DNA of 39,906 bases from assembly GCA_038529855.1 (NCBI GenBank), contig JBCBDH010000001.1, forward strand, positions 1 to 39,906. The letters run 5' to 3'. Of this stretch, positions 4,489-24,000 are shown one piece after another. A model generated the notes under the pieces. It was not told the origin of the DNA, did not search any database, and saw only the letters and a program-made list of their open reading frames with translations. The first letter of the stretch is position 1. Each line of letters begins with the position of its first letter. Source of the stretch: Bacteroidota bacterium. Its GTDB lineage: Bacteria > Bacteroidota > Bacteroidia > Chitinophagales > Saprospiraceae. The position numbers and the translations under genes were made by a program.

Positions 4489-7400
4489 GTGCTTACAAAC
4501 TATGCCAGGAATTTTATTTTATGGATAACCCTGAAAATCAAGCCTGTGGCAACCATCAATATTCCTATCTCGGAACTGGATCCGAGAGTTGTTCAGATTG
4601 GAAAATTAATTGGTATACTTGAGCAAAACGGTGCAAGTTCCCTGACCTTAAATGCCAATTGGTTTCAACAACCGCTCAGTTATTTACAAGCCATTCCCTA
4701 CAACCCAGAATTGCTCAATGTTCTGGAAACTTTATTGGGAGAGGCCAGTGGCAATTCTTTGGGAACACCCAAAAAAGCCTTAGATCGACTTTGGTATCCC
4801 TTCCTCAATCCATCAACTTCTGGCCAATCGACCAATCCTCAACCATTGGGTATTTACCTGGTCAGCAGCCAACCAGACCCTACCAAAGGAACCGTCATTG
4901 GCTTGGGTTTGCTCTACGATTTTGAGCCACAGACTAGCGTCACGGTTACGCCCTATGCTTACTTCCCTCTGCTCCAACTTCCGCTGGATGGTAATACTAA
5001 TTTTGCATTCATACTAGGTGCAGCCAATTATCCAGTTGAACTGGGTTGTAATATTTTAGGGCCTGGAGTTTTTCAAACTGGTACGAGTATTAATGATTTG
5101 TCTTTTGATGGCTTTATCGCAGGGGCGGATATTTATTTTCAGCAAGCCGCTTCGCTTGATCTGTCTTTTGTCAACCTCAAACTTCCAGGAGAATCCAAAG
5201 GCCAGAATACTTCGCTTCAAGAGTTGATCAATAACACGACTGTTGAAGATTGGATAAGTATTACTTTCTCTGTCCTTGGCGCACAATTGGCCAAAGCCAA
5301 TACCAGTACTGCCAATGCCAATGCCGATACCGCAGCCAATATCATCAATAGCATCTTGCAAATGCTTGGTCTTTTGGACATCGTTCCAGCTATTGATTGG
5401 GCGAGCCTCATTTCCAATCCCAGCCAGGCGGGTACTATTTTCAAGGACTGGTTTCGCTCTATCGTCAGTACACCAGAAAGCTTAAAAGCATGGCTCAATG
5501 ATTGGTATTGCATTTTCAATAATCAAAACCCATTAGCCGCTACAGCTAATGATCATATCAGTGGCGATGGCAGCAAGGAAAATCCTTATGCCATTAATAT
5601 CCTGGAATTTATCCTAAATGATCAAACCGCTATTCTTGTTGATTTTACCTTTGCTTTCCAAATCGACAATGATGGAGTGGTGACGATTTTCCCTGGCTTT
5701 GAAGTAGCCACTAGTGCCAAACAGGTCGTCTCTTCCATCAGCCAGTTGGGTCTATTGGTTCGAGCAAAGACGGAGGTTTTACAGGGTCAACTTTTTGTGG
5801 ATAATGGCCTCTCTAATTTTACGATTTTCCCTTCCTTCGAGATCATGGCGGTGGCCGCCAATCCCGATGGTCAAAGTCCGCTTTTTTCTGTAGCTGACCC
5901 AAGTTCTACCCAAGTAAGATTGAGCAATGGACAGCCACCAACTTTTAGCGTTGGTTCTATGCAAGTGGGCTTTGCGGTAGCGAATTATTACGATACGGCA
6001 AGTGCTAGCATCCCCGCACCTACCTTCCGCCTGACTGAAGTAATCGCAGGCGAAGGCACCTGGCCCTCTATTGACATGACCAATCTGAGTACGGACACCG
6101 TCTTGGAGATCATTGAGGCTATCGTCAAACAAAGTATTGATAATTTTTTCCAGCAGACTGGTTCTGTAGACTTATCGGATAACCTACAAGCCATTTTGGG
6201 ATTGAAAGCTCCGCCTAGCTTTAGTGGCACCTGGCCCTTGGCTGATCAATTACTACTTGCGCCCAATACCATCCAATTGCTGATCAATGATCCAATGGGT
6301 GCTCTGGGGGCTTATTATGAGCGCTGTTTGACGATGGCGGATGATAATGGACCGCTTTGGAATTATATGATGCCTTCCTTTGTCAAGGCGCTGGGAGGTA
6401 CGGGGGTTCAGCTAGCGGGAAAGGGGAGCGAGACGGAGCCTTGGCGAGTAGAGCTGATCAATATTGGCAATGCGGTAGCTTATGCGCAAAGTTGGTTGGA
6501 TAGCCAAAACCCCAAACAGCTACAGTTGGGTTTTTACTTCAAAGTGCCCGTTACGATTAGTGCGGTCGAGGCGGATATTGGAGTCAATGTCGATTTGATG
6601 CAGGCTACCTTACCCAATATTGATGGTACGGGTGCCTTTGCCGCTTCTTGGTTCCAAGGCTTTAATACCCAATTAGATCTTACTGGACCCAATAATACCC
6701 CCATTAAATCACCAACATTGGGTGGTTTGACTTTTGAAGCCAATAGCCTTTTGTTCCAATTGGGTTGGAATCAGCTCCAACAGTTCAACAGCACCGCTAC
6801 GCTTCAACAAGTGAGTATACAGCCTAAGGGCTTGACTGCTATTTCGCTGGGGGATTTGGTTTTCACCTCTATTGCCTGGTCAAGTACCCAATTGGAGCAA
6901 TTTGCTCAACCCGCAGTCAATGTACTGGGATTGCTGTTGATAGAGCATGGCGGAACGCTGGGGGTAGGAATAAGTACCATCCTGGGTTTTCTTCCTGGTC
7001 TTCCCGATCTTTTTGATGGATCGCAAAAGCAAGCGGATTATCCTTTCCCCATTCCCGAAAATTTCAGCCTGCCATCGACCTGGCCTGAGTTTAATTTGCT
7101 GACGCCCAATAATCCCTGGAAAGATGTAGAGACCCAACTCAGCAATCTATTGGCGGGTGGTGGAACCAATATGATTCCCGCCATGCAAATGCTTGGCTGG
7201 TCACTCACTCAAATCCTACCCAATCCACCTAGCAAAACGCCAGCTGGTAGCTTGACTGATCCCTGGTTTGTTTCGCTTCCCAATTTTTGGAATGTAGAGG
7301 TCTTGACTTGGTTGGGGGCTAATAATCAAATGGGCTTTGGTTTGCGGCGGCCAGTGAGCACCAATGTTGGGGCGGGTGTTAAATTACAAGTTAGTGTTCG

Positions 7401-10400
7401 GGCAGATGTGCCTGGTTTTATCATCACGCCTACCAGCAATCCTTCAATAAGCAATAGCGAAGCGATTTATCCGAGAATTTGGCTATCAGCCAGTATGACC
7501 AATGCCACAGAAGGTAGTCCTCTTTTCCGTGGGCCCAATGGCATTCTGGATATCGACCTCGTTTATTTTGGGGCATCTGCCATGCTGATCAATGGGGAAT
7601 TAGACTATGGTTTGGATTTATCTTTTACAGATAATCAGCAAGCGACGCCTGAGGTTATAGAACTGACCAAGGTGCCTGATCTTCCCCAATACACCTGTTT
7701 GCAGGGGATGAATCTGATGGAGGGTTTGGTGAATTCCTGGATGGTGAAAGTATCAGCGACCATCAATTCGGCTGGCGCCTCCTTCCCACAATTACAATCC
7801 TTACTAGACCTACTGTCCAATCTCGATTTGCTGAACAGCTCTGGATCAAGTGGCCAAAGAAGTTATGGCTTTAATTTTGGTGCATGGGATACGCTTTTGG
7901 CCAATCCAGGTCCTTTTTATTTGGCCAAGTTTAAGGTGGCGATGAATTCCGAAAGTGGGAATCAAAGCTTTTTACAAAATCTGGCTACCCTGTTGGGCTA
8001 TCCCAATTTCAATTTGTCTACCTCAGAAGATGGGATGCAGTACTTACTCTCTGCCCTGGGCTTACTCACCCCTTATCCCAATAAACTATACAACCTCAAT
8101 ATCAATGGATGGCTGCGATTGATTCGCAATCCAGTTACTTTTTTCCAAGTCAATATACCTGCATTATTTAGTGATATTGATTTGCTTCAATTGCTGATTT
8201 CTCAGCTTCAGTCCATCAACAGCCCAAACACTGATGTATTTAATGTAGATTCAACGGGCTACCTGGCTACACTACAAACCCCCACCACTAAGCCCATCCA
8301 AATAGGCAATCAGCTGATCTTATTTGGCTCTGTGCTTACAAATTTAAAGACCCTAAGTTTAACACTCAATATTGGATTAGGGGCCAATGTGATCAATTCC
8401 GCTATTGTGTTTGAGTATGTACCAGTATATAGTAATGGGACACTGACGGATAGCTATGCCTTTTTCTTGCAAGGATTACCAGACGAGGAAGTTCCCCCAT
8501 TCCCTCCCTTACAACTCTATCCCTTCCCAACGGATACTTCCAACTATCTGGCACAGCTAGGTTTGCAAATTCCTGTGTCTATACTTTCTACGCTTTTGGT
8601 CAATACCCTAAATAATTATGTGGTGCCAGCCAATCCTGTGGTCCTCAAGATTTTTGCGGTACTTGGATTGACCCGTACGTCGAGTATAACGAACAAAGAA
8701 GTGATTAAACCCCTGACTGGGATATTTATGCAGCCAGTTGAATGGGTATTGAGTACGGATGTCTTGGGCGATGGAACGCAGCATCTTGATCTCAATAAGC
8801 TAGGTGGATTATTATACAACCTGACAGATGCAGCAGGTATTGTCAGTCCTGATGGGGTGAGCCTAAAACCCTATGAAAGCGAAGGCAATAAAGATGGGGT
8901 TCAGTTGGCGGGTTTGCCTTATGGGGTAACGGTCACCTTTACGGCTAATCAGACGGTAGGAGCTAGTTTTGGGCTGAGTTTCCGCCCCACCATCACTGCC
9001 GTTCCGCTTAGGGTTGATCTGGCAGCTAGTTTGGCTTTTGGGTTGAGTAAAGGCGTCAATATCAATGGGCAGTCTACTTTGATTTATGATATTGATACGA
9101 GCACGGAGACCTATGCAAGAATCGTCAATACTTATTCACAAGACGCCTTTTCCTTGATGGTCGATGGCAAGTACCAAGGGCAGTCTTTCTACAAACCCAT
9201 TCAACTCGTTCCCTTCATTGGACTCAATCAATTTATTCCTGGTGCTGGTGATATTCAGCGGCTATTGGTATTGATTGGGGATAAACTATTTGCTGCTCTT
9301 GATACTTATGGTAGTGCTGATTTGAAGGCTTATGTCACGCCACTACAGAATTTGGCCAACATTCAAACTGGGCAGGAACTGTATGACTTCTTTGATCAAT
9401 TCATACAAAATCCGCTGGCTGCTTTTACTATCGCCAATATACAAATTACCCTCCCCAAAATTAATCAGTTTTTGACGGATTTGGGGATCAGTGGTTTTAG
9501 CCTTTCTTCTGATAATAAGCTGCTTTATTACCAGCAGGATTTTTCTAGTCGCAATAGTCAAGTCACTATTTACCTAGGGGAACAAAGCCTAAATGATACA
9601 GCGGTATTTGGGATGTGGATCGTACCCAAGGTACAGTTTGAATGGTTTACCTTACAACTCAATAATACGGGCATTGGCATCCAAACGCCAATCAATACGG
9701 GGGCTTATCAGCTTGAGTATAATGTAGAAATAGATTTGGGTTTTGATTTGAGTAGCCTGCCGATCCAAGGATTACCCACGCCATTGGTCTCCTTGAATTT
9801 TAATGGTAATCTCGACCAGATAAATGGTCCCCAATGGCGGGTTTATCCCATCCAAAAATCGACGGATACAGGGACCTTGCTCATCAATTTATTGCCTACG
9901 GCTCAATTGGAAATTACGGGTACGGGAGTGGTCCCCGCTGCACAATGGCTAGAGGCTTTTGCTACCCAATTTCTAGTCCCCTTTGTGGTCGATACCGCAC
10001 TGACCGTTCCGCAGATTGTTTACTTCCTGGATCAAATGACGATTGGAACGACACTGATTCATCCAGGACAGATATTGACTAAATGGGGTTTGATCAGCAA
10101 AGATGCAACCAGTGGAAATTACTACCTCAATCAACTCAACCAAGTTTTTGATCTCAATAATCCCGTTAGCATTATTACCCAATTGATTTATGCAGCGGCT
10201 GATCTTTTGAAAGGGGTAAATATCCTGCAGGTCTTTAATTCCAATAGTCAGTTATTGGGTTCCATCAGTATTGCTTCAGCCCCTCCTTCAGCGGGCAGTT
10301 CAGACACCTTGTATGGGCTCAATGTGCAGATGCAAGACATCATTGTCGCCACTGGCTCTAATGGCAAGGCCCCACAGTTGATCTTCCAATTGGGCAAATG

Positions 10401-13400
10401 GTTTGCTAATCAAAGCGATCAAAACAATTGGCTCAATCAAGATATCAAACCTGGCTTACAGGTCTTTTTGATCAAGCAAGCCGCTTCGGATAATAGCCTG
10501 AGTTTTTATCCCAAAATAGAGTTGGTCAGCATCGGCCTGGATTTCGGCGGAGCCAATATGGATAAGCCGCTGGTTGATGTACAAGGGACTACGATCCAAG
10601 GTATCGAACCCCGTATTTACCTCTCCTTGGATTTTGGTAATGGAACAACAAGTGTTGACTTTGGCTCTTCGATTTTGATCGATCAATTGGGCTTTCCGCT
10701 TGGCCCTGGCTTTGATTCTAGTACGGCCAATGGAAGTACCAATCCAGTCGCAGCAAATCTGCTCTCTTCTGGAGAAGCCAATAATAACAGCGGCGATACC
10801 AATGCGGTCAATCCTTCCTTTAGTCTTTCCGCTTCCTATGTGACGAGTGCTAATAATTTTCAGTTTCTCTTATACGACAGCAATAATGAGCCAACGGAAA
10901 AGATTTGGATTGCTGTGCAGCGAAGCTTTGGACCACTATCCTGTAGGAAGGTGGGCTTTGGTTGGGTGAGTAGTCTGGAATTGCTACAGCTCTTGTTTGA
11001 TGGTTCTGTATCGCTGGTAGGCTTGACGATGGATTTACAGGAATTGGAAATTGGTATTCCGATTAGTACGCCAACGACCTTTTCTGCTTATCAATTAGAC
11101 CTTGCGGGTATTAATGTCTCATTTGATGGAGGCCCTGTGAGTATTAATGGCGGTTTTCTAAAAGACGATACAGGAGGTATCATCCAATACACTGGTCAGG
11201 CCCTGCTTCAGGCGGCTAGCTTTAGTTTAGGTGCCTTTGGGTCTTATGGAACGGTCAATAATCAACCGTCTTTATTTGTCTTTGCCTTTCTCAATACGCC
11301 TTTAGGTGGTCCGCCCTTCTTTTTTATCAAAGGGCTCAGTGGTGGCTTTGGTTTTAACCGCGCGATCAATCTGCCTGCTGCCAATGAGGTTCCCTCTTTC
11401 CCATTCGTTGCAGGCATCAACAATCCAGCCATCCTTGGTGGGACCAATGGCGACCCTGCCGTAGCACCAAGTGGCACACAAGTCTTACAACAGCTAGGCA
11501 ATACCTATGTACCCCCAAGCTTGGGCAATTATTGGATCGCTGCGGGGGTTAATTTTACTTCTTTTGAGATCATTCAATCTCAAGCCATTGCAATTATCGC
11601 TTTTGGTCGGGAATTCGAAGTAAACATTATTGGTATGTCCGCCCTCAAATTGCCCAAAGTTGGGCGGACCTATGCCAATGCAGAAATGGCTTTTAAGATC
11701 GTCTTTAATCCTGGAGAAGGATTCTTCCAGGCAGAAGCTGTCCTTACTTCCAACTCCTGGGTGATTACGGAAGCCTGTAAATTGACTGGTGGCTTTGCTT
11801 TTTACGCCTGGTTTAAAGACCAAAGCGATAGCGGGGCAAAGGCTGGTGAGTTTGCCTTGACCCTGGGGGGCTATAATCCCAAGTTTACCATTCCAGCCTA
11901 CTACCCACGTGTTCCATTATTAGGGATTAACTGGCCAGTATCCAGTAAGGTGTCCATTAATGGAGGGGCCTATTTTGCGATGACGCCTTCTTGTGTGATG
12001 GCGGGTGGTAGCCTCAATGCCGTTTATCAATCTGGTGGGTTGAAGGCTTGGTTTTCGGCCAAGGCTGATTTCCTGATTTCTTGGAAGCCTTTTTACTATG
12101 ACATCAGTATTGGGGTGAGTGTGGGTGTTTCCTATACCTTTAAGATCATTTGGAGAGTGACAATGAAGGCAGAGCTTGGGGCTGATGTAGCCATCTGGGG
12201 GCCGCAGATGAGGGGCCAAGTTCGCGTGAATTGGTACATCATTTCCTTTACCATTTATTTTGGTGATGAAAATACCTCTCGAGGAAGTTCGAGTGTGATC
12301 AATTGGGACGAATTTAAGACCGCCTTTTTGCCATTGCCTCAAACGCCAGCACTTCCTCCTGCTTCCGAAACAGCTTTATCCAATGTCGCTCCTGCTGCTG
12401 CCATACCCATTCAGCAGGTCACACAAATTACGACGAGTCAAGGTTTGATCAAAAAGATCGACAATGCCAATAATGGAGAAGAAACTTGGGTGATTCGGGC
12501 TTCAGAATTTGAATTTGCCTTGTCCACAGCCGTCCCATTAAACAAGGTGACCCATACGGATACATCAGGAACAGAAGAAGTGATTATTAGCAGTGCTACG
12601 CCATTTGGTATTAAGCCATTGGGTAGTGTGACCTTCAGTCCAGACGGTACAGACAAAGTATCTAGTTTGCATCTTCGACTGACTTATGATAATACACCAG
12701 TCAATATCCTGGATTATTTCCAGATAACAGGTACGCAAAATACGACCAGCCTACCTACTTCGCTATGGGGAACAGTCAATAATGGACAGGAGACGCCCAG
12801 CAATACCTCTATTGATAATGTCTTGGTTGGCCTTGAATCGGTCAAGACCTATCCCGATCTTTTACCCGTCCCTGTTCCTCCTGTTGACATAGCCAATCTG
12901 GGTTATTTTACCCTGGACAATCGCAATTTGCCATTGGTCAGCCAGCCCCAATTAAAACCCACGGACCCCTTAAGGCAAGATGACGAATCGCTGGCTTTGA
13001 TTGCCACAACGGTGATGAGTACAGAGGTACTTGATTATCGAAATGAAATCATTGATGCGATTCTCGGGGTAGGCATTGATGTGGCATTTGATGGCCGACT
13101 GGATCAATTGGCTGCTTATGCACCAACGACTTTTCAGGCGCCGCCATTGGTAGGTAGTTTGGGAAGTGTTGGGGAAGTGACTAGTAGTGGAAGCAGTCTT
13201 GGGGTGCCTCAGTTCGAGTCGCCAGCGCCTAGCCTTGAGTCTATTCGATTACCAGAGGAGGAAAGCATTGAGGTGCAGGGGCAGATGCGTCTGCGTTCAT
13301 CGGGGCAATTAGCGTTGGGGGATGGTAGTTTATTAGCCAATAGTGCTCATATCCTTGGAAGCACTTATTGGGCAGCAGACGATCGCAAATTACAGCAGTC

Positions 13401-14298
13401 CGTGTTGCAGAATTTGTATTCCATCAATCAAAAAATTCAAAATCCTTCTTTTGATCTAGTGCTGGGGGCTGGGACGACGAATGTCTTGCAACTCCCTATT
13501 AAAACAACTCAGTACTCCATACAATGTAAAAAAGCGGACTTCCCAGTTGCTGCTTGTTACTTTGATCAGCATCGACAATTTGTGGGGCGGGTGAACTTGA
13601 GCCATCGCGAAAAAGTGATGATTCCTGCAGGCGTTCGGCAATTGGTGCTTTGTGGAGCGCAGGCGATGGGTCGCGATCAAATGGAGGGCTGGCATCTTCA
13701 CTCAGCCCTGCGCGTGATCAATCCCAATGTGATATTAGGGGAGGGAAATGCCATTATTCGTCCTGATAATCCCATCCGTTTGAAAACCCGAACCTACAAT
13801 CGGGACCTAGGCATTATCAGAGGCGCCAAAATGGTGCAGCAAAATAAGGTACAATTGGGAGGTGATCAATTGGTCAGCGGTCGGGTAGAGACGATTTTTT
13901 CAACAAAGATCAATGCCATTGGCGTCCTGCTCCGAAGACAAGGGGCCGAGGAGAAGCAACCCAAGAATAAAGAACTCTTAAAGACGGCTACTTTCCGACC
14001 TGCAAGCAATACGCACAGCGAATTGACCAAGGCTAAACTACTGCCCACTTCTATCAAAGGAGAAAAAGAAATCCTACTCTTTTTCAGCGTGCCAAAAGTT
14101 GATCAAAATGTCTTGATCAGCACTTTTGCCAAAGCACCAGAGGGCTGGCAATTGGCTGGCGTACTTGGCTTCCTTCAATCTGCTGCTAAAGTAAAAGCCA
14201 AATGGGATAGTCTTCGCTATGGAGTAGCATCTGAATCCGAAAGCTTGTCCGATGAAGTAAGGGCAAGGGTATCCATCATTAATGAAAAGACAAAATAG
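4489..14298 (+). CDS. Giant protein (3269 aa) of unknown function; first gene of the central cluster
   Basis: A single uninterrupted 9.8-kb ORF. It is N/Q/S/T/G/L/P-rich, with about ten Cys by my count. I saw no signal peptide, TM helix, tandem repeats or catalytic motif. The start is GTG 4489 in the track, and GTG 4546 (VATINIPISELD...) is an alternative. The first in-frame ATG lies roughly 290 codons in. Confidence 0.9.
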   Translation: MLTNYARNFILWITLKIKPVATINIPISELDPRVVQIGKLIGILEQNGASSLTLNANWFQQPLSYLQAIPYNPELLNVLETLLGEASGNSLGTPKKALDRLWYPFLNPSTSGQSTNPQPLGIYLVSSQPDPTKGTVIGLGLLYDFEPQTSVTVTPYAYFPLLQLPLDGNTNFAFILGAANYPVELGCNILGPGVFQTGTSINDLSFDGFIAGADIYFQQAASLDLSFVNLKLPGESKGQNTSLQELINNTTVEDWISITFSVLGAQLAKANTSTANANADTAANIINSILQMLGLLDIVPAIDWASLISNPSQAGTIFKDWFRSIVSTPESLKAWLNDWYCIFNNQNPLAATANDHISGDGSKENPYAINILEFILNDQTAILVDFTFAFQIDNDGVVTIFPGFEVATSAKQVVSSISQLGLLVRAKTEVLQGQLFVDNGLSNFTIFPSFEIMAVAANPDGQSPLFSVADPSSTQVRLSNGQPPTFSVGSMQVGFAVANYYDTASASIPAPTFRLTEVIAGEGTWPSIDMTNLSTDTVLEIIEAIVKQSIDNFFQQTGSVDLSDNLQAILGLKAPPSFSGTWPLADQLLLAPNTIQLLINDPMGALGAYYERCLTMADDNGPLWNYMMPSFVKALGGTGVQLAGKGSETEPWRVELINIGNAVAYAQSWLDSQNPKQLQLGFYFKVPVTISAVEADIGVNVDLMQATLPNIDGTGAFAASWFQGFNTQLDLTGPNNTPIKSPTLGGLTFEANSLLFQLGWNQLQQFNSTATLQQVSIQPKGLTAISLGDLVFTSIAWSSTQLEQFAQPAVNVLGLLLIEHGGTLGVGISTILGFLPGLPDLFDGSQKQADYPFPIPENFSLPSTWPEFNLLTPNNPWKDVETQLSNLLAGGGTNMIPAMQMLGWSLTQILPNPPSKTPAGSLTDPWFVSLPNFWNVEVLTWLGANNQMGFGLRRPVSTNVGAGVKLQVSVRADVPGFIITPTSNPSISNSEAIYPRIWLSASMTNATEGSPLFRGPNGILDIDLVYFGASAMLINGELDYGLDLSFTDNQQATPEVIELTKVPDLPQYTCLQGMNLMEGLVNSWMVKVSATINSAGASFPQLQSLLDLLSNLDLLNSSGSSGQRSYGFNFGAWDTLLANPGPFYLAKFKVAMNSESGNQSFLQNLATLLGYPNFNLSTSEDGMQYLLSALGLLTPYPNKLYNLNINGWLRLIRNPVTFFQVNIPALFSDIDLLQLLISQLQSINSPNTDVFNVDSTGYLATLQTPTTKPIQIGNQLILFGSVLTNLKTLSLTLNIGLGANVINSAIVFEYVPVYSNGTLTDSYAFFLQGLPDEEVPPFPPLQLYPFPTDTSNYLAQLGLQIPVSILSTLLVNTLNNYVVPANPVVLKIFAVLGLTRTSSITNKEVIKPLTGIFMQPVEWVLSTDVLGDGTQHLDLNKLGGLLYNLTDAAGIVSPDGVSLKPYESEGNKDGVQLAGLPYGVTVTFTANQTVGASFGLSFRPTITAVPLRVDLAASLAFGLSKGVNINGQSTLIYDIDTSTETYARIVNTYSQDAFSLMVDGKYQGQSFYKPIQLVPFIGLNQFIPGAGDIQRLLVLIGDKLFAALDTYGSADLKAYVTPLQNLANIQTGQELYDFFDQFIQNPLAAFTIANIQITLPKINQFLTDLGISGFSLSSDNKLLYYQQDFSSRNSQVTIYLGEQSLNDTAVFGMWIVPKVQFEWFTLQLNNTGIGIQTPINTGAYQLEYNVEIDLGFDLSSLPIQGLPTPLVSLNFNGNLDQINGPQWRVYPIQKSTDTGTLLINLLPTAQLEITGTGVVPAAQWLEAFATQFLVPFVVDTALTVPQIVYFLDQMTIGTTLIHPGQILTKWGLISKDATSGNYYLNQLNQVFDLNNPVSIITQLIYAAADLLKGVNILQVFNSNSQLLGSISIASAPPSAGSSDTLYGLNVQMQDIIVATGSNGKAPQLIFQLGKWFANQSDQNNWLNQDIKPGLQVFLIKQAASDNSLSFYPKIELVSIGLDFGGANMDKPLVDVQGTTIQGIEPRIYLSLDFGNGTTSVDFGSSILIDQLGFPLGPGFDSSTANGSTNPVAANLLSSGEANNNSGDTNAVNPSFSLSASYVTSANNFQFLLYDSNNEPTEKIWIAVQRSFGPLSCRKVGFGWVSSLELLQLLFDGSVSLVGLTMDLQELEIGIPISTPTTFSAYQLDLAGINVSFDGGPVSINGGFLKDDTGGIIQYTGQALLQAASFSLGAFGSYGTVNNQPSLFVFAFLNTPLGGPPFFFIKGLSGGFGFNRAINLPAANEVPSFPFVAGINNPAILGGTNGDPAVAPSGTQVLQQLGNTYVPPSLGNYWIAAGVNFTSFEIIQSQAIAIIAFGREFEVNIIGMSALKLPKVGRTYANAEMAFKIVFNPGEGFFQAEAVLTSNSWVITEACKLTGGFAFYAWFKDQSDSGAKAGEFALTLGGYNPKFTIPAYYPRVPLLGINWPVSSKVSINGGAYFAMTPSCVMAGGSLNAVYQSGGLKAWFSAKADFLISWKPFYYDISIGVSVGVSYTFKIIWRVTMKAELGADVAIWGPQMRGQVRVNWYIISFTIYFGDENTSRGSSSVINWDEFKTAFLPLPQTPALPPASETALSNVAPAAAIPIQQVTQITTSQGLIKKIDNANNGEETWVIRASEFEFALSTAVPLNKVTHTDTSGTEEVIISSATPFGIKPLGSVTFSPDGTDKVSSLHLRLTYDNTPVNILDYFQITGTQNTTSLPTSLWGTVNNGQETPSNTSIDNVLVGLESVKTYPDLLPVPVPPVDIANLGYFTLDNRNLPLVSQPQLKPTDPLRQDDESLALIATTVMSTEVLDYRNEIIDAILGVGIDVAFDGRLDQLAAYAPTTFQAPPLVGSLGSVGEVTSSGSSLGVPQFESPAPSLESIRLPEEESIEVQGQMRLRSSGQLALGDGSLLANSAHILGSTYWAADDRKLQQSVLQNLYSINQKIQNPSFDLVLGAGTTNVLQLPIKTTQYSIQCKKADFPVAACYFDQHRQFVGRVNLSHREKVMIPAGVRQLVLCGAQAMGRDQMEGWHLHSALRVINPNVILGEGNAIIRPDNPIRLKTRTYNRDLGIIRGAKMVQQNKVQLGGDQLVSGRVETIFSTKINAIGVLLRRQGAEEKQPKNKELLKTATFRPASNTHSELTKAKLLPTSIKGEKEILLFFSVPKVDQNVLISTFAKAPEGWQLAGVLGFLQSAAKVKAKWDSLRYGVASESESLSDEVRARVSIINEKTK

Positions 14299-15838
14299 AA
14301 ATATGACCAAGCCTAGAGCACAAACGAGCGCAGTCAATCTGCTAGAAGGTACACTAACTTTGTACGACTATTGTCGCCCTTCTTTGCCTTCTGGAAATTG
14401 GCGATTGGAATCGACCCAGCAGGTTACCTGGAATGCGCAAGAACTGGATCAGTCTTATTCGAAACAACAGGCTATGGTAGTGGAAGGGCCTCGCTTTAGC
14501 ATCGCACCTTCGGATGTGTACAGTGTGCATCCTCCAGCAAATTCGAGTGGTTTATATAGCAATATCCTACCCCATATAGTGATGACCAAGCGGACCCTAC
14601 CCTGGGAGCGCTATTCACAGGCCAACAATCAATTGCCCTGGATGACTTTATTGCTCGTTGAAGATTTAGAATTTGTTGGTGCAAGTGCCAATTCGGAAAC
14701 CAATCGGGTATTAAACCTGACGGTTGGGGAAGTGCTTGATCCAGGGGCTGGCATCCTTGGACCACAAGGGCTGACCAATGTTTCTACTGAAGATCAAGCA
14801 CAGCCTTGTTATGCTATTGATCTTCCTCCTTCTTTATTTTTGGATATCGCACCTACTGCAGCGGAGCTGCCTTATCTGCTCCATAGCCGAGAAGTGGATG
14901 TGACTAACAAAGAGATTCAAGAGGGAAATCGCGACGGCTGGTTTTCGGTAGCTGTCAGCAATCGATTTCCGACGGCTGGGAGTAAGATGTATGCCTGTTT
15001 GGTATCGCTGGAAGGCTGGGCTGATTATTTGCCGCAAGGTTCTAAAGCAGGGGAGCTATCCAACTATTCTGCCGTTCGGCTTTTTACCCTGGCCTATTGG
15101 ACCTTTACCGCAGAAACGCAGGCTACGGCTAGCTTTACAGAGCTCATGCAAAATATGGACTCTTGTAAATTGAAAATGCCCGTAACTCCAAAAGCCATCG
15201 GCCAAAATACGAGCCCCGCTGCTCAATTAGTTACTGAAGCCTTGAGCGATGGTTATACACCGATGACCTATGAGATGCGTGTTGGGGAAAAGACGGTGGC
15301 TTGGTACCGAGGGCCCTTTAGTTCGGTGATGATCCAGCCCAATGCCCTTTTGCGTTCTTTCTTTAGTGCTGAGGCAGCTTTGATCTACGATAAATCCAAT
15401 GGGATGTTTGATGCCTCCTATGCGGTGGCTTGGCAGATTGGTCGCCTGTTGGCTTTATCAGATCGGAATTTTGCTTTGGGTATGTTGCAGTGGCGAAAAA
15501 ATAATCGACAGCAACAAAACGATCGGCTGGCTAAGCAAAGCAATATTGCTGCTTTTCAAGGATTACTATCCGCTTCGAATGAAGAAGCCATGGAGCTGTC
15601 TGCTGTTGAGTTATCCAATCAGTTGGATGAATTTTTATCGCTTCGGATGGCCAATTTGGTACAAGGAGACGAAGAGGGGGCGCCTTTGATTTTGACGCGT
15701 GATCCCTCTGGTTTGGCCTATCGCAAAGCGCAATTGCCCGGTCTTGTCGATCAGGAGGAACTATTGAAATTGCTAGATCAAAAGATCCCACTAGCCACCT
15801 GTCTGAGAACCCTTATTTTCAATCAATCCCCAAAATAA
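14282..15838 (+). CDS. Hypothetical protein (518 aa), cluster core gene
   Basis: A long ORF that overlaps the giant ORF stop by 17 nt. The alternative ATG 14303 lies 4 nt after that stop. Notable motifs are ILPHIVMTKRTLPWERY...QLPWMTLLLVEDLEF and YAVAWQIGRLLALSDRNFALGMLQWRK. No signal peptide. Confidence 0.85.
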   Translation: MKRQNRNMTKPRAQTSAVNLLEGTLTLYDYCRPSLPSGNWRLESTQQVTWNAQELDQSYSKQQAMVVEGPRFSIAPSDVYSVHPPANSSGLYSNILPHIVMTKRTLPWERYSQANNQLPWMTLLLVEDLEFVGASANSETNRVLNLTVGEVLDPGAGILGPQGLTNVSTEDQAQPCYAIDLPPSLFLDIAPTAAELPYLLHSREVDVTNKEIQEGNRDGWFSVAVSNRFPTAGSKMYACLVSLEGWADYLPQGSKAGELSNYSAVRLFTLAYWTFTAETQATASFTELMQNMDSCKLKMPVTPKAIGQNTSPAAQLVTEALSDGYTPMTYEMRVGEKTVAWYRGPFSSVMIQPNALLRSFFSAEAALIYDKSNGMFDASYAVAWQIGRLLALSDRNFALGMLQWRKNNRQQQNDRLAKQSNIAAFQGLLSASNEEAMELSAVELSNQLDEFLSLRMANLVQGDEEGAPLILTRDPSGLAYRKAQLPGLVDQEELLKLLDQKIPLATCLRTLIFNQSPK

Positions 15839-15843
15839 TAGCC

Positions 15844-16824
15844 ATGTCTGCTCTTCCAAGTAATGAACAGTATTTAGCACAGCTCAAAGCATTGGTGCAA
15901 GAAAATACGAAGGAAACATCAGCACTCCATGCTCCAACTGCTTTGAATAATCCGATCATTCCGCCTACGCTTCCCGAAAGTGAAAAACAATGGTTGCAAA
16001 ACCTGGCTCTGTTGTACGGCGTCCCTTTTGATAATCTAGTGGCCAATTCCAGTTTATTGCCGCCAGAGTCCATCCGCTTTTTCTATTTAGACGACAATTG
16101 GATCAATAGTCTGCTGGATGGTGCCTTAAGTATTGGGGTGCAGGATTCGCGAGATGTCAGTAATCAACTGGCCGAACAGCCTGTGATTAAACTACAAGCT
16201 CGAAGGGACAGACAAAAGGTGCGCTACCAAATCCTGGGATCATTGCCTCCCGCCAATTTAGCGGCGGAGCAGGTGGCCGCTGGTTTTTTGATGCGCTCGG
16301 AAGTAGTTTGGGGCTGGCCAGGACTGGAGGTGGTCGGCTATGACAATACCGCTGGTACGGGTACGCCAATTCCTTTATTGCGGATGGATCGTTTGGCGCC
16401 CGATGTCTTGCTGGTGCTTTTCCAATCTCCCCCGCAGCGAATCAACCTCAGTGAACCCAAGGAGGGTTTGCGTTTTGGGGTAGGAGGGAATGAGCAAATT
16501 CAAATTCGCTACCTCGGGGCGGATGCTACACAGCCAGCGGGTGTGCCTGCTGAAAATCCTGATCAAACGGGGAATAGTGTTTTTGCTACGGCTCAGATGA
16601 GATCGGGAGGAAAGAATGTGCTGGATGTATCGGCCACGATTAATAATCCGGGCGATGGGATATTAGCCAGGATGACTTATGCGGGGGTGAATTTTCCAAC
16701 AGGGGTAGAATTCAAGGCAGCGGCTTTTGGTGTTCAGATGATCTCTACCGCCGAACAGCAAGCTTTTATTTTGAATAATAATGGGTTGACGCCAGTGGCG
16801 GATGAGGGTTGTCCGCCTGCTTAG
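15844..16824 (+). CDS. Hypothetical protein (326 aa), cluster core gene
   Basis: It starts 5 nt after the previous stop, which is a double stop (TAATAG). Its main motif block is LALLYGVPFDNLVANSSLLPPESIRFFYLDDNWINSLLDGALSIG, followed by GFLMRSEVVWGWPGLEV and LAPDVLLVLF. No signal peptide. Confidence 0.85.
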   Translation: MSALPSNEQYLAQLKALVQENTKETSALHAPTALNNPIIPPTLPESEKQWLQNLALLYGVPFDNLVANSSLLPPESIRFFYLDDNWINSLLDGALSIGVQDSRDVSNQLAEQPVIKLQARRDRQKVRYQILGSLPPANLAAEQVAAGFLMRSEVVWGWPGLEVVGYDNTAGTGTPIPLLRMDRLAPDVLLVLFQSPPQRINLSEPKEGLRFGVGGNEQIQIRYLGADATQPAGVPAENPDQTGNSVFATAQMRSGGKNVLDVSATINNPGDGILARMTYAGVNFPTGVEFKAAAFGVQMISTAEQQAFILNNNGLTPVADEGCPPA

Positions 16825-16917: not shown

Positions 16918-19900
16918 ATGGCAACTTCCAATAATGTATTGTGGAGCGGCCCTCGTCTAATGGTCCCGATGACCGTCGAGGCTGTCGTTGTGACCAAGCC
17001 ATACCTAAATAGTGAATGGGCTTATCTTCCCATGAAGTATTATAATATTGATCGGACCTCGGATATTACACCCGATTTTTCTGGTAATCTGACCAGTTCG
17101 AGTAGCAAACCACCAGTGGGAATTATCCTGCAATGGTCTTTGCCGGATGGCTTTACGCAGGGGATAGAAGATGTACAGGGTGATGTGGAATACCCCTATG
17201 CGCCAAATCGATGGTTGGTAGTGCGGAATGCTTCGGTGATGGCAGCTTGGGTGGTGGAGAGTGATTTTAAGGGAACGTCGGAAGTGCCGGGCACTAGTGC
17301 TTATCCTAACTTGAATGGTGGCCTTGTCAAATTCATTCAAATTGGTCGACAAATTCCGCTAACGGAATGGCAAGGAGAGCAAAACCCTACGGAGCCTTTT
17401 TTACAAGCCATCGGACCGGGCTATCCAGGTTTTTCTACCTTTTCTGCAGATATCCAAAATGTCTTTTCTTTTCACGATGATATGAGTGGGATAGAAAATA
17501 CCAAGGAGCTCATTTCTTATACGATCGTTGGTTGGTATGCCGATCCGACAAATGATCCCCTCTATGGGAAAAGAGAATTTGGGGCTTCGGGATGGACGAC
17601 GGAAACGGAGTGGGCAGATTTGATGAATATGCGTTATTGGTCGGTCGGGGACTCAACAGATTTGCAAATTTCAGTAGCGGCAGCTCAGGCTTGGCTGGCG
17701 AAAAATGGAATTGTTGTTGACCCCAGCAATAAACAAGATTATTATGCTGCCCAAACTTTATGTGAAGGCTTGGTCTTTAACATCAATTGGGAAGGGGTAG
17801 ATGGTCCTACTCAAAGTGGTGTCCCCACCTTAGACAATATTCCTCCCTCCAACCTCACAGAACTGCCACAAATTGCCGTGGGTAATACCAGTATTGATGC
17901 ACTTTCAGCATTGGTCAATCAAGAACTCATTTGGCAGGGCAATCCAATTGAAGGCGTTGAGCTATTTCTACAAGAACTCCAATACGATTTGCTGATGGCA
18001 TCTACCATGACCAATCAAAGGTATCTGGTAGAAACAACGATTATGAAAGCCTGGTATACAGCTCAATATGGTGGAAGAGAATGGCTGGTCATTGATCCTG
18101 ATGCTTCCACTCAGCCTGACCTACCTGACCCCATTTTGGCCCAGCTCATTGCCCTTAATCAATTGCAGGGCCAATCAGATCAGGAGACTGCCCTACTGGA
18201 AAGACAGCAGAGGGAGTTGTATGCCCTGTGGTGGAAGAAATTGTACTATGATTTAAATATTATTTTTGGCTTTCCTCCAGCAGGGGTGACCATAGAGCAG
18301 TTTAGAGCCATCAATGAATATTTAGTTGAGCAGCTCGATCCAGAGAATGCTAATTCCTTTATCAGTCAAGTCGCCAATTTGCAGCAAAGTGCATCCAATG
18401 ACCAAGCTTCGCTTTTGACGGCCATAAGCAATTTACGAGAAGCCCTAAGTGCATTGAGCCCTCCGCTGAGTTTACAAGAGAAAAATCGTCCAAGTCGCTG
18501 GGAGGCCAATGAGCCAGTGATGTTGGTTTATGGAGCCAAGCGATCTTATATGCATGGAAGTGATGGACGGTTTACGGATAACCAAGACCTATTTACGCGT
18601 TTTACTGGGCAGCATTTGTATGGGATCAAAGTAGCCGTAACGGATACGATTGATGTCATCGTTGATGAGCGTAATATCACCATTCCTACGCCTACCTCAT
18701 TGGCTGGTAATCCCTTATTACCCAAAGAAGTGGAATCGGTCTGGATTGAGCATTTCTTTCTCAATACCTCCAATGCTGAGGCGATCGCAATGGCCGCTTG
18801 TGCTGCCGCAGAGCTCCCCTACGATCCTGCATTAGTAGAGACCATCCAAAAACAGCAAACCCTGATCTGGAATACAGATGTCGACAGTCCTTTGGATCAA
18901 CAAACCTTGGCAGAATTATCTGGTCTACAACTGCCGCCCAATCCTTCCAAGATTCCTTCCCTAGTTGGCATCAATGCCTGGATACCCCCTTGGAATCCAC
19001 TGTATTTGTCCTGGGATATTCGTTGGCTACCCTCTAGCCAAACGCCATCAGATATCATGAGCAAATGGAAATACGATCCTGCGGCAATGGAATATGTTTG
19101 GGACAGTTTGGAGCAACCTGATCCTTGGGAGAATGGGCAGCGTTTGAGTGGCTATACTTTGATTACGCCTGCCTCTACTTTTGTCCTTCAGCAAAAGCTA
19201 GCGACTTATCTAGCCGAAAACCCCAACTCTCCCTATGAGGGCATCAAGGGCTTTGTGGATACGGTAGCTAACTGGGATTTTTTATCGCAGAGCATTCGCA
19301 ATTTTAACGATATGCTAATCCAGTGGAATGGCAATCAGCTCAATGCCATCTCCGAAAGTGATTCCGCTTATGCTGTTGTTGGGGAGGAGACCAATTGGGC
19401 GCCTAGGCCAGATATGACCATTCCTTTTGTACCCATTCGAGCTGGGCATTTTGTGATTGAAAATGTATTGATCGTAGATGTTTTTGGACAGGTGTTTAAT
19501 CCAATTGCCGCTCAAGGCTTATCGCCAAGACAATACAAGCCCATCATCGGTCAGGGATTGCGAACGACCTTTTCGGATCAAATTATCCAATTGCCTCCTC
19601 GGCTGATGCAGCCTATGCGCTTGAATTTTGAACTGGTTTCGGCGGATGATAAGATGGAAGATATTTGGGTTAATCCCGAGGCCAATCCAGTGTGTGGTTG
19701 GATATTGCCTAATCATATTGATCGGGGCATTACAGTTTATGATGCTTCGGGTAAATTATTGGGCGAGATTCTTTTAGTTGGCGGTCAGCTCAATAAGCGT
19801 TTGCGTTGGGACCCCGTTCCAGGAGGGACTGTACCTGTCGGTCAGCCTTTGCGGGAACAAATTACTAATCTTCATCTGCTGGGATTTGTTGAGGGTTTGA

Positions 19901-20679
19901 TCAATCAAAGTAATAGTGCTGGGGCTTATCAAGATTTGATTACAGTGATTGACGAAACGATGTGGACGGTTGATCCTTTGGGGGGAAGGACAGATAGCAA
20001 TTTATCGGTATTGGTGGGACGACCTTTGGCTTTGGTAAGGGCCAGTTTGGAATATGATATGGCCAAAGTAGAATTGCAGAATCAACAGTGGTTGTCTACG
20101 ACGGAATCCGATAGGACAGATGGCTATTTAGACCTGGATTTTCCCGTTTGGTTGGGCAGTCTTTTGGATCAGAATGATGGCTTAATGGGCTATTTCAAAG
20201 GAACGGATTACAGCCAAATGAACTCTGTTCATCGTTCCGAACTCATTGATCCCAAAAGCCAATACATCGTCAATGAGTCTTTTAGTTTAAAACTTAATCA
20301 AGCCACTTCCTACGTTACGCTACTGCTTGACCCCAGGGGAACAGTCAATGCGGCGACGGGGATATTGCCTGTCCAAACGCAGGAGCTTCCCGCGCGGTAT
20401 GTCGATAGTGCTTTGGAGGCTATGGAAGTCACTTTCCGTACGGGCCCGCTTATTACCAATCCCAATAGCATCCGCATGCCGCTACCTGCAGAAATTAATG
20501 GCAAGTGGTCTTGGATACAGCACGCTGGGGTGACGGTTTGGGAGGAAGTTGATGAAATCGAAAAAACAACGCCCAATGCCTTGTTAAAAGACAGTCCAGC
20601 AAATACCTTAAAAGAGGGTTGGTTAAAGCTTGCTGATGCGCTAGGGAATAATACTGCTGCGAAGGATAAAACAAATTAA
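16918..20679 (+). CDS. Hypothetical protein (1253 aa), cluster core gene
   Basis: A long ORF with an ATG start. The N-terminal motif is PVGIILQWSLPDGFTQG...YPYAPNRWLVVR. A probable coiled-coil or helical segment, LAQLIALNQLQGQSDQETALLERQQRELYALWWKKLYYD, lies at about 18130-18250. I saw no signal peptide or TM helix. Confidence 0.9.
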   Translation: MATSNNVLWSGPRLMVPMTVEAVVVTKPYLNSEWAYLPMKYYNIDRTSDITPDFSGNLTSSSSKPPVGIILQWSLPDGFTQGIEDVQGDVEYPYAPNRWLVVRNASVMAAWVVESDFKGTSEVPGTSAYPNLNGGLVKFIQIGRQIPLTEWQGEQNPTEPFLQAIGPGYPGFSTFSADIQNVFSFHDDMSGIENTKELISYTIVGWYADPTNDPLYGKREFGASGWTTETEWADLMNMRYWSVGDSTDLQISVAAAQAWLAKNGIVVDPSNKQDYYAAQTLCEGLVFNINWEGVDGPTQSGVPTLDNIPPSNLTELPQIAVGNTSIDALSALVNQELIWQGNPIEGVELFLQELQYDLLMASTMTNQRYLVETTIMKAWYTAQYGGREWLVIDPDASTQPDLPDPILAQLIALNQLQGQSDQETALLERQQRELYALWWKKLYYDLNIIFGFPPAGVTIEQFRAINEYLVEQLDPENANSFISQVANLQQSASNDQASLLTAISNLREALSALSPPLSLQEKNRPSRWEANEPVMLVYGAKRSYMHGSDGRFTDNQDLFTRFTGQHLYGIKVAVTDTIDVIVDERNITIPTPTSLAGNPLLPKEVESVWIEHFFLNTSNAEAIAMAACAAAELPYDPALVETIQKQQTLIWNTDVDSPLDQQTLAELSGLQLPPNPSKIPSLVGINAWIPPWNPLYLSWDIRWLPSSQTPSDIMSKWKYDPAAMEYVWDSLEQPDPWENGQRLSGYTLITPASTFVLQQKLATYLAENPNSPYEGIKGFVDTVANWDFLSQSIRNFNDMLIQWNGNQLNAISESDSAYAVVGEETNWAPRPDMTIPFVPIRAGHFVIENVLIVDVFGQVFNPIAAQGLSPRQYKPIIGQGLRTTFSDQIIQLPPRLMQPMRLNFELVSADDKMEDIWVNPEANPVCGWILPNHIDRGITVYDASGKLLGEILLVGGQLNKRLRWDPVPGGTVPVGQPLREQITNLHLLGFVEGLINQSNSAGAYQDLITVIDETMWTVDPLGGRTDSNLSVLVGRPLALVRASLEYDMAKVELQNQQWLSTTESDRTDGYLDLDFPVWLGSLLDQNDGLMGYFKGTDYSQMNSVHRSELIDPKSQYIVNESFSLKLNQATSYVTLLLDPRGTVNAATGILPVQTQELPARYVDSALEAMEVTFRTGPLITNPNSIRMPLPAEINGKWSWIQHAGVTVWEEVDEIEKTTPNALLKDSPANTLKEGWLKLADALGNNTAAKDKTN

Positions 20680-20704: not shown

Positions 20705-22267
20705 ATGTCATCTTTGCTCAAATATACAGTCACGACCAATCCCAGTCCACTATACTTTACTCGGGATACCCTGAACCCTTCTATTACCAGTATTTTGATT
20801 GCCGTCACGCCAGATGGGACGGAGGATGTTCCTTGCAATGGCATACAATTCGCCATCCAGCTTGGAGCGGAGGATAAGGATTTGACGACGGCGAATAATG
20901 AGTTGAGCATTGTTCCAGAAAGCTTACAAACGACTTGGTCGATGGTGCGTTTTTCACCAGGTATTTATCGAGCTTATCCCATTGCACCAACAACGACCAT
21001 AAAGGCAGGAGAGGTACTTACCTTTCAATTGCAGGGCATTTTGGTCAATGAGAAAGCTGGATCGACGCTTTTGGGAATTGTAGCTAATTTACCTGGCGGG
21101 CCAGATTCTGATAATATTACTTTGACGAAGGTGCGCTCTAATTTAGAAATCAATAGTTTTGATGCTTCGCCTCAAGCCATTTACCCTGGAAACTTTAGCC
21201 AGTTGAGCTGGACAACGACCGCCGCTTCTTCCGTGACGATTCTACCTGAGGGCCCTCCCAGTCTGCCAACCAATGGTACGCTGGAGGTCAGCCCTAATGT
21301 AGCCACTACTTATTATTTGACGGTATTTGGAGAGGGGCCATCTATTACACAGAGCTTTCCTATTCAGGTCATTCGAGCGAAGATTATTGAATTTACCTCT
21401 ACGGATAATTCCATTGATCCTGGCCAACCAGTATTATTGAAGTGGAATGTCCAAGATGCCGCCAATATAGAAATAAGTCCAGGCGGCTATACCAATTTAC
21501 CAGCGATAGGCGAATTGGTGGTTTCGCCGCAGCAGACGACGGCCTATTCTTTGAAAGCCACCAATGTCAATTCAGAAGATCAGCGAGATCTGGTGATTAT
21601 TGTCAGTAATCCGAATCCAAAGATTCTATCTTTTAAGGCCAATCCCGAATCTTTTATTGTCGGCGAATCATCCCCTATTGAATTGTCCTGGGATGCTGAA
21701 AATACTACTACTGTTACCCTTACGCCTGGTAATTACGGTCCGCTTCCGCCCAATAGTTTGGTGATTGTCAATCCGACAGAACCGACCACTTATACCCTGA
21801 CGGCTACGAACAATACGGGTTTGATAGCTATAAAACAGGTGACCGTTTTTGATTCTTATACCAGACGATTTTATTATAATACTACGGAGGCGGCGATGGT
21901 TTATATTGTTATCAATTGTATTGATCTGCCTATTGGTAGTGCAGTAGGGATGCAAGCCTATCCCTATTTGCCACCCCCTTATGGACAGATACAAATTCCA
22001 AAGACCGACATTACGACTAAGCCCATATTCAAATTAGAGACTTTGGTTGCGGTGCCTGCCAATACCAATTTTACTTTTTACGTCAATTATTATCCGCAGG
22101 ATCAGGTTACCCCTCCACATGCGACCATTCAGCTTCAAGTAATTTTATATACTTCGGATGCGGTTCAGCTCAATGAGGATGGAACGGTGAGTATGAAGGC
22201 TGTTGTGAGGGGAACTTATCCCAAGACTACGAAGGACTTGGTTCTTTCACAGGACTTGAAACTTTAA
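20705..22267 (+). CDS. Tandem paralogue P1 (520 aa): conserved N-domain, three Ig-like repeats, variable C-domain
   Basis: N-terminus MSSLLKYTVTTNPSPLYFTRDTLNPSITSILIAVTP. It has three repeats of about 80 aa with the pattern I.SF.A.P..I..G....LSW....A..V.L.P......G...V.P...T.Y.L.A, at roughly 21140-21373, 21374-21607 and 21608-21847. The C-domain occupies 21848-22264. Confidence 0.9.
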   Translation: MSSLLKYTVTTNPSPLYFTRDTLNPSITSILIAVTPDGTEDVPCNGIQFAIQLGAEDKDLTTANNELSIVPESLQTTWSMVRFSPGIYRAYPIAPTTTIKAGEVLTFQLQGILVNEKAGSTLLGIVANLPGGPDSDNITLTKVRSNLEINSFDASPQAIYPGNFSQLSWTTTAASSVTILPEGPPSLPTNGTLEVSPNVATTYYLTVFGEGPSITQSFPIQVIRAKIIEFTSTDNSIDPGQPVLLKWNVQDAANIEISPGGYTNLPAIGELVVSPQQTTAYSLKATNVNSEDQRDLVIIVSNPNPKILSFKANPESFIVGESSPIELSWDAENTTTVTLTPGNYGPLPPNSLVIVNPTEPTTYTLTATNNTGLIAIKQVTVFDSYTRRFYYNTTEAAMVYIVINCIDLPIGSAVGMQAYPYLPPPYGQIQIPKTDITTKPIFKLETLVAVPANTNFTFYVNYYPQDQVTPPHATIQLQVILYTSDAVQLNEDGTVSMKAVVRGTYPKTTKDLVLSQDLKL

Positions 22268-22278
22268 TCAAAGGAATT

Positions 22279-22298
22279 CCTTGGGGCTTGCCCCGAGG
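22279..22298 (+). terminator. GC-rich tetraloop hairpin 12 nt after the P1 stop (possible attenuator)
   Basis: The sequence ccttgggg-cttg-ccccgagg forms an 8-bp stem (one G.U pair). The 3' arm can instead pair perfectly with cctcgggg at 22352-22359. Confidence 0.3.
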
Positions 22299-23964: not shown

Positions 23965-24000
23965 ATGGATCAATCACCGCTCAAAAATCAAAAATACCCA

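Follow-up and report, generated by a model that had tools for sequence, protein, structure and literature searches.

A giant DUF6603 protein as the first gene of a widespread multi-gene module, found in a Saprospiraceae contig

The DNA analyzed here is a stretch of 39,906 nucleotides (nt), below called the window, from a member of Saprospiraceae (Bacteroidota; assembly GCA_038529855.1, contig JBCBDH010000001.1, positions 1 to 39,906 of the forward strand). Its plus strand holds an open reading frame (ORF) of extreme length at 4489-14298. This ORF is a genuine gene, which we name D, and its product is a long-form member of the DUF6603 protein family. D heads a self-contained module, D-A1-A2-B-C, and is its largest gene; the gene order of the module recurs across many phyla and on plasmids. 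We are highly confident that D represents the DUF6603 subunit of such a module. DUF6603 was already known as a Pfam domain; new are the long-form architecture and the partners A1, A2, B and C, neither of which is recorded by Pfam. As for function, we tentatively suggest that products of D, A, B and C build a target-binding, membrane-active complex that is released from the cell, a proposal offered with rather low confidence and weighed below against several alternatives.

Gene D and its reading frame

The frame 4489..14298 (+) is unbroken over 3269 codons, counted from the first GTG, and none of the ORFs nested inside it on either strand is longer than 140 amino acids (aa). A first-pass annotation, made from the sequence alone, had described it in the same way, as an uninterrupted 9.8-kb frame in which nested and antisense ORFs are all short. 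The real start is most likely the GTG at 4546 and not 4489, because the database gene call for D has 3250 aa and because Met1 of its homologues aligns at this codon in a 17-sequence alignment. Gene D thus occupies 4546..14298 (+) and encodes 3250 aa. Residue numbers in the following text are counted from GTG at 4546, except for the DUF6603 match, which is given in ORF residues.

Extreme length is the sole argument for regarding such a frame as an assembly artefact, frameshift fusion, pseudo-ORF or non-coding frame. A chance origin can be dismissed at once, as 3269 open codons at 45% GC cannot arise randomly. Further, D has about 20 homologues of 2990-3390 aa, which share 27-47% identity, are colinear with it and align over 88-99% of its length. 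The frame is therefore not a product of misassembly or frameshift. The artefact explanation, which the first-pass annotation had named as one that would overturn its reading, is also contradicted by conserved synteny, by a strong Pfam domain and by the confident, regular secondary structure in AlphaFold2 models; we consider its probability negligible.

In composition, D has exactly 10 Cys residues (0.3%), K+R+E+D amount to 13% and N+Q+S+T+G to 36%, so the initial impression of about ten Cys, few charged clusters and many N/Q/S/T/G residues was accurate. By hydropathy scan and inspection, D has no N-terminal signal peptide; its N-terminus, MATINIPISELDPRVVQIGK, shows no n, h and c regions. The hydropathy scan found no strongly hydrophobic 19-mer either, and no transmembrane segment. 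Comparison with NCBIfam (E<=0.01) returned zero family matches, models of the type IX secretion system (T9SS) C-terminal domain (type A, type B) included. The absence of both signal peptide and T9SS C-terminal domain, suspected from the beginning, was thereby confirmed.

Domain architecture of D

The earlier statement that D contains no recognizable domains proved wrong. Pfam DUF6603 (PF20248) matches ORF residues 2143-2677 (10915..12519, +) with E=1.1e-142 and 476.6 bits, the cut-off being 27. The match covers model positions 1-499 of 502, corresponding to a domain of about 535 aa, and as a whole-model match above the gathering threshold it makes D a bona fide family member.

Short-form members of the family (~1250 aa) align to D residues 1-247 and ~1810-2872. 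Long-form D is built of this ~1250-aa family core, that is the N-terminal domain and the DUF6603 beta-meander, and of two additions. The N-terminal domain shared with short forms lies at 4546..5286 (+; residues 1-247) and the family-wide conserved part common to short forms at 9973..13161 (+; residues ~1810-2872). The first addition is an insertion of ~1560 aa (residues ~250-1810) that holds three clear repeats, described below; for its remainder (8008..9972, +; residues ~1155-1809) no relative was detected outside long forms. The second addition is a beta-rich C-terminal extension of ~375 aa (13168..14295, +; residues 2875-3250), which varies among homologues and consists of a low-complexity linker followed by a beta-rich domain (~2909-3210).

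AlphaFold2 models were computed for residues 1-1200 and 2051-3250, with mean predicted local distance difference test (pLDDT) values of 69.7 and 69.9, respectively. The DUF6603 domain is modeled at pLDDT 80-95 as ~26 long antiparallel strands with one helical insertion, the strands being joined by short turns of 2-4 residues. Many of the predicted strands are amphipathic, with hydrophobic and polar residues alternating. Past DUF6603, the model continues with smaller beta-domains, a helical linker, the low-complexity linker and the C-terminal beta-rich domain. When the 2051-3250 model was compared to PDB by Foldseek, the best matches, all of them weak, were the ApoB100 beta-belt (prob 0.98, E~1e-3, TM-score <0.3) and outer-membrane barrels (BtuB, VDAC, MtrB, SlpA; TM-score <0.3). 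The 1-1200 model gave nothing in PDB at E<=1e-3. In BFVD the top match is an unnamed protein with TM-score 0.13, which is not interpretable. Searches of PDB sequences with D as a single sequence and as a profile/HMM yielded no match, and no solved structure matched D convincingly in Foldseek and PDB sequence searches. A catalytic domain was not detected with Pfam and NCBIfam.

How do these results affect the first guess about D, a large scaffold or a translocon-like component? The scaffold part is reasonable, since D is the largest subunit of a conserved, packed multi-gene module and is built of beta-sheets and helices. For the translocon part one could point to the ~26 amphipathic strands and to the barrel and ApoB100 matches, both weak (E~1e-3, TM-score <0.3). 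The DUF6603 family is, however, also present in bacteria without an outer membrane, and an outer-membrane translocon is therefore rejected as an explanation of D.

Cryptic repeats in D

Self-BLASTP reveals no repeats in D, and neither TRF nor a direct-repeat search finds any at the DNA level. By profile-profile comparison and in the AlphaFold model, in contrast, three tandem repeats of ~275 aa emerge at residues 340-1155. Repeat R1 (5563..6402, +; residues 340-619) is a beta-meander followed by a helical bundle of ~100 aa; R2 (6418..7230, +; residues 625-895) and R3 (7243..8007, +; residues 900-1154) come after it. In hhalign comparisons of blocks cut out of the D family alignment, block 340-620 matched block 900-1200 with 98.2% probability (E=4e-14, 225 columns) and block 625-895 with 86.5% (E=4.6e-6), while 625-895 against 900-1200 reached 81.8% (E=1.1e-5). 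The N-terminal unit (75-330) matched block 900-1200 with 40.7% (E=2.9e-4). Two negative controls were available: the remaining pairs of D blocks stayed at or below 12% probability, and D blocks against the A, B and C families gave less than 2% in all cases. A degenerate fourth copy may exist in addition to these clear repeats, and the model of residues 1-1200 displays four successive units, each with 6-8 long beta-strands and then a helical bundle of ~100 aa.

As single sequences, the repeats are only 21-27% identical (z<=3 against shuffles), which is why D looks non-repetitive by eye. The first-pass description of D as non-repetitive throughout thus holds for the raw sequence, but not at the level of profiles and predicted structure. 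The observation that D is not made of tandem Ig, cadherin or Rhs repeats stands, and can be extended to RTX repeats, as Pfam gives DUF6603 alone.

Partner genes A1, A2, B and C

In the window, D is followed on the same strand by A1, A2, B and five C paralogues. A1 (14282..15838, +; 518 aa) shares its first 17 nt with the end of D; A2 (15844..16824, +) has 326 aa; B (16918..20679, +) has 1253 aa, with a coiled-coil segment at ~380-490. The three are conserved partners of D, and Pfam has no match for any of them. Because module genes overlap or abut, their co-translation is suggested. In other genomes A1 and A2 are frequently one fused protein (A), B is occasionally fused to C, and one B homologue carries a fused phage tail-collar domain. 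All of the more than 410 collected homologues of B are unnamed. Pfam searches with 26-28 diverse members of the A and B families brought nothing consistent, and searches of PDB sequences with A1, A2, A and B (single sequences and profiles) nothing except coiled-coil noise for B. PHROG matches are confined to two members of each family and to inserted domains of ~70-90 aa, hence they do not reflect homology of the core.

We also considered whether the components might be related to each other. All hhalign probabilities among D blocks, A, B and C are below 2%, and this idea was rejected. That single-linkage clustering merged B with C, and A1 with A2, is no sign of homology, as natural fusion proteins account for it.

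The five C paralogues (20705-22267, 22390-23964, 23965-25572, 25618-27186 and 27231-28811; block 20705..28811, +) are arranged in tandem, have 520-535 aa and share 52-68% identity. They are composed of a conserved N-domain of ~140 aa, three Ig-like repeats of ~85 aa and a variable C-terminal tip; their identity is 69% in the N-domain and drops to 41% at the tip. The Ig-like part matches a PHROG of virion structural proteins of T4-like cyanophages (29-32% identity). Proteins of ~470 aa at the C position of distant loci are homologous to the window C (hhalign 99.8%), and other genomes carry there one to three differing genes, for example Kelch propellers or tail-collar proteins. Among 96 genes downstream of B at other loci, a domain scan found Kelch propellers (10), other beta-propellers (3), Phage Tail Collar (6) and the Peptidase_S74 chaperone (2) and, in one subclade, fatty-acyl-AMP ligase (FAAL; 8), ketoacyl synthase (KS; 8) and Asp/Arg hydroxylase (2). 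Toxin or nuclease domains were found in none of the 96. Since C proteins combine conserved attachment domains with exchangeable binding tips, they point to target recognition.

Such domains call to mind a phage tail. One might imagine that the module derives from a phage tail or baseplate, or from a contractile injection system, and is now a highly diverged remnant, in which A1/A2 and B would be wedge or hub and C proteins the tail fibres. The Tail Collar, Peptidase_S74 and virion-type Ig-like domains at the C position, some of them also inserted in A and B, speak for this, and so does the succession of an often-fused A1+A2 pair, a large B and then fibres. On the other hand, sheath, tube, gp25, baseplate-J, VgrG and tape-measure families were undetected in the scanned window ORFs and in sampled neighbors elsewhere, the PHROG matches in A and B are limited to the inserted domains mentioned above (2 of 26-28 members) and BFVD fold matches to tail proteins are insignificant. 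DUF6603 itself is absent from 50,697 phage records (INPHARED) and was not found in 2.9 million viral contigs (IMG/VR) scanned with two sequence patterns. We regard descent from a phage tail as very improbable.

Spread of the module

One genome per species was scanned, which provided at least 576 matching stretches, and 80 loci were kept for context analysis. They span Bacteroidota, Acidobacteriota, Pseudomonadota, Cyanobacteria, Actinomycetota, Bacillota, Verrucomicrobiota, Planctomycetota, Myxococcota and Gemmatimonadota. By tblastn and ORF clustering, about 70 of the 80 have A1, A2 and B homologues immediately after D, with order and strand preserved, and the window belongs to these DUF6603 modules by the same arrangement. 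The order D-A1-A2-B was encountered also in a 5.3-Mb Edaphocola genome, in an Aminicenantes metagenome-assembled genome (MAG) and in two further metagenomic contigs, in one of which D is just 27% identical to the window D. By size, D proteins of the loci form two classes, one of about 900-1800 aa and one of about 2800-3700 aa.

DUF6603 occurs on plasmids of Streptomyces, Embleya, Kitasatospora and Paenibacillus. At the inspected plasmid loci of Paenibacillus and Streptomyces, the module is a stand-alone four-gene cassette, D-A-B-C, the partners being all labeled "hypothetical" by the Prokaryotic Genome Annotation Pipeline (PGAP). On the Paenibacillus polymyxa plasmid p-YT9A (locus L086, positions 1-7200), a region of polymorphic-toxin type is situated ~8-14 kb upstream of the cassette; it contains two "baseplate assembly protein V" (VgrG-like) genes, DUF4280 (PAAR-like), a GH-E nuclease fragment and an ankyrin-repeat gene. 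Some genomes possess more than one copy of the module (L064/L068, L050/L055). Carriers that can be grown in culture include Taibaiella helva, Aquimarina muelleri DSM 19832, Paenibacillus polymyxa YT9 and Streptomyces clavuligerus.

A separate observation concerns one long-form subclade, comprising Flavobacterium, Vibrio, Hahella, Algoriphagus, Fulvivirga and others. There, D is directly preceded by three divergent paralogues resembling lipase class 3 (L018, L022, L027, L028, L032, L035, L048 and L054), and C is followed either by FAAL or by KS together with an acyl carrier protein (ACP) and an LpxO-type hydroxylase. The window has no such lipase-like, FAAL, KS, ACP or hydroxylase genes.

A patchy, cross-phylum distribution which includes plasmids, a self-contained cassette and the occurrence of more than one copy in some genomes also speak for an intracellular anti-phage or conflict cassette. 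C would then sense phage components, in agreement with the resemblance of variable subunits to phage receptor-binding modules, and D would be a membrane-disrupting effector of abortive infection. Yet no PADLOC model is matched by D, A1, A2, B or C, and ATPase, nuclease, NADase and protease domains were not detected in any of them. Their Cys-poor, low-charge composition would be unusual among cytoplasmic defence proteins. A role in defence is accordingly judged improbable, though a little less so than a phage-tail origin.

A possible model of module function

We return to the released, target-binding complex proposed at the beginning. Its basis is partly compositional. Cys content in D, B, C and the lipase-like proteins is 0.3-1.0%, lower than in flanking genes (1.1%) and in the adjacent FAAL/KS enzymes (1.6%), and the same proteins are low in charge and rich in N/Q/S/T/G relative to both. 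Such composition is typical of extracellular and phage-fibre proteins. Across 85 loci, no consistent signal peptide or transmembrane helix was found in D, A, B and C. Because signal peptides are missing and the module is present in bacteria with and without an outer membrane, assembly in the cytoplasm is suggested, where module proteins probably form one large complex.

In our model, D would serve as scaffold of the complex, with its amphipathic DUF6603 sheet making contact with membrane or lipid. The anchor for the C proteins would be B, which has a coiled coil. The C proteins might act as fibre-like arms, with variable tips picking the target. Release would take place through lysis or along some unknown route, after which the complex would attach to a different cell or surface and perturb the membrane there. 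The lipase-like proteins encoded alongside may cooperate with it in one subclade. A connection to membranes or lipids is supported by amphipathicity of DUF6603 strands, by the weak likeness of the fold to ApoB100 and barrels, and by the lipase class 3-like paralogues upstream of D in one subclade.

Several points weigh against such a model. Firstly, no component contains a recognizable pore-forming, enzymatic-toxin, lysis or secretion domain (Pfam, NCBIfam, PADLOC), and neither a lysis cassette nor a dedicated exporter was seen adjoining the module. Secondly, fold matches are weak (E~1e-3, TM-score <0.3), the N-terminal model having none at E<=1e-3, and the argument from composition is indirect. 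Kelch propellers and Ig-like domains are also found in intracellular proteins. Finally, FAAL, KS and ACP genes at some loci would suit a lipid-metabolic role just as well.

The last point leads to a different explanation, namely that the module is an intracellular lipid-handling scaffold. The DUF6603 sheet and the repeats would bind or shuttle lipid in a manner of ApoB/large-lipid-transfer or bridge-like lipid transfer proteins, and D would work with neighboring lipase-like, FAAL, KS, ACP and hydroxylase genes. This would be consistent with the ApoB100 beta-belt among the best Foldseek PDB matches (prob 0.98, E~1e-3), with amphipathic DUF6603 strands, with the absence of signal peptides and with the recurrence of Lipase_3-like paralogues, FAAL, KS and Asp/Arg (LpxO-type) hydroxylase near the module. 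The lipid genes are, however, confined to one subclade, and neither the window nor the minimal plasmid cassettes contain them. Matches of AsmA, TamB or VPS13 type were obtained neither in Pfam nor in Foldseek. Tail-collar, S74, Kelch and Ig tips of C are ill-suited to an internal lipid carrier, and the composition looks extracellular rather than cytoplasmic. We therefore consider an internal lipid carrier unlikely.

If the composition is indeed that of surface proteins, the module might instead be a non-toxic surface fibre or an apparatus for adhesion that serves in attachment, gliding or prey contact and is exported in an unrecognized way, with D as stalk or anchor and C as adhesive tips. The fibre-like character and variable tips of C fit such an apparatus, as does an enrichment of the family among surface-active bacteria of soil and sea. 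But every component lacks a signal peptide, a T9SS C-terminal domain, a sortase signal and any type I secretion system (T1SS)/RTX feature, and the presence of the module in both Gram-positive and Gram-negative lineages argues against one envelope-specific export route. The chances of this explanation seem to us about as slim as those of the lipid carrier.

The released complex could be put in a still more specific form: a new class of large particles, assembled in the cytoplasm, equipped with fibres bearing interchangeable tips, released and attacking membranes via the DUF6603 sheet, unrelated to phage tails, Tc toxins and known secretion-system cargo, and serving as a widespread, horizontally mobile weapon or adhesion device that occurs in hundreds of species. 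In this form the proposal is somewhat more doubtful than in the general one.

Neighboring genes in the window

Directly upstream of the module (1511-4125, +) are genes for a pyridine-nucleotide-disulphide oxidoreductase and an M81/MlrC-type metallopeptidase, the latter 78-79% identical to proteins from Bacteroidota MAGs. They are not conserved beside DUF6603 modules elsewhere and are for this reason judged probably unrelated to it. Right after the module, at 29000-36100, GC content falls from ~0.45 to 0.37-0.41. The region includes a highly charged ORF of 463 aa (30328-31719), overlapping ORFs of 349 aa and 323 aa (Pfam negative) and a PKD-domain lipoprotein-like protein (34442-36118), and may constitute a distinct segment, possibly an acquired one. 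At its edge the window holds three minus-strand genes (36173-39901): a caspase-like Peptidase_C14 protein of 443 aa with an N-terminal peptidoglycan-binding domain, then a 464-aa ORF (Pfam negative) and a 320-aa ORF. This cluster may represent a separate caspase-based conflict or cell-death cassette.

Significance

With 3760 clusters at 50% identity among 1.84 billion representative proteins, DUF6603 is present in hundreds of reference genomes and at least 10 phyla, yet it has neither a known function nor a solved structure, and the three or four partners of D are missing even from Pfam. We found no publication that names DUF6603, PF20248 or IPR046538, and broader keyword queries brought up no relevant work, though literature beyond that searched may differ. 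That proteins of 1200-3700 aa keep a fixed gene order across so wide a range of bacteria implies a machine that is costly and under selection. Should this machine be released, bind targets and act on membranes, phage-tail-like systems and Tc toxins would be joined by a new kind of bacterial weapon or adhesion device, and biotechnology could take an interest in its exchangeable binding tips. If it handles lipids or defends against phages instead, the module would still be a new system. The window version is distinctive in its long form, three cryptic repeats and five tandem tip-variant C paralogues.

Comparison with known systems

As a system, D-A1-A2-B-C matches nothing characterized, with the reservation that the domain of D is already catalogued as a DUF and that its function is unproven. 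Known anti-phage systems differ from it, as PADLOC has no match for D, A1, A2, B or C. RTX/MARTX toxins of T1SS differ as well: D has no HemolysinCabind match and no ABC or membrane fusion protein genes are in the window.

SprB-like giant adhesins of Bacteroidota normally carry a signal peptide and a T9SS C-terminal domain. D resembles them in giant size, in its Bacteroidota host and in Cys-poor, N/S/T/G-rich composition, but it possesses neither the Sec signal peptide nor the T9SS C-terminal domain nor tandem Ig, cadherin or SprB repeats, and the DUF6603 family is not confined to Bacteroidota. The contrast to these adhesins drawn at first reading was well founded.

With phage tail fibres and extracellular contractile injection systems the module shares tail-collar, S74-chaperone and virion-type Ig-like domains at the C position and the lack of signal peptides. 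Differences lie in the sheath, tube, gp25, baseplate-J and spike families, which none of the scanned window ORFs matched (the 320-aa ORF at 38939-39901 and a partial ORF at the 5' edge excluded), and in DUF6603, which was not found in the phage and viral collections.

Predicted long up-and-down antiparallel amphipathic sheets liken D to the ApoB100 beta-belt, to VPS13/AsmA/TamB and to outer-membrane beta-barrels, and its giant size and cryptic structural repeats to repeating beta-groove proteins. Homology to ApoB100 or barrels is not shown by matches of E~1e-3 and TM-score <0.3. From bridge-like proteins of the AsmA/TamB/VPS13 type, D is set apart by the lack of an AsmA, DUF490, Chorein_N or TamB match in Pfam and of an N-terminal membrane anchor, and none of them is among its Foldseek matches. 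Every repeat unit of D has a helical bundle of ~100 aa, which separates it from beta-groove proteins. Outer-membrane barrels differ by the signal peptide that D does not have, and by the presence of the DUF6603 family in Paenibacillus and Streptomyces.

Taken as a whole assembly, the module can be compared to Tc (ABC) toxin complexes. TcA, SpvB and RHS/YD Pfam domains are not found in it, no Tc structure is among the Foldseek matches, its C tips are of binding type (Kelch, Ig, tail collar) and not toxin domains, and D is mostly beta-sheet, not an alpha-helical shell with a channel. The likeness is one of organization: both are multi-subunit, with a giant first subunit devoid of a signal peptide and with large partners; the last subunit is conserved N-terminally and variable C-terminally, and may occur as tandem paralogues; and for both, assembly in the cytoplasm is implied.

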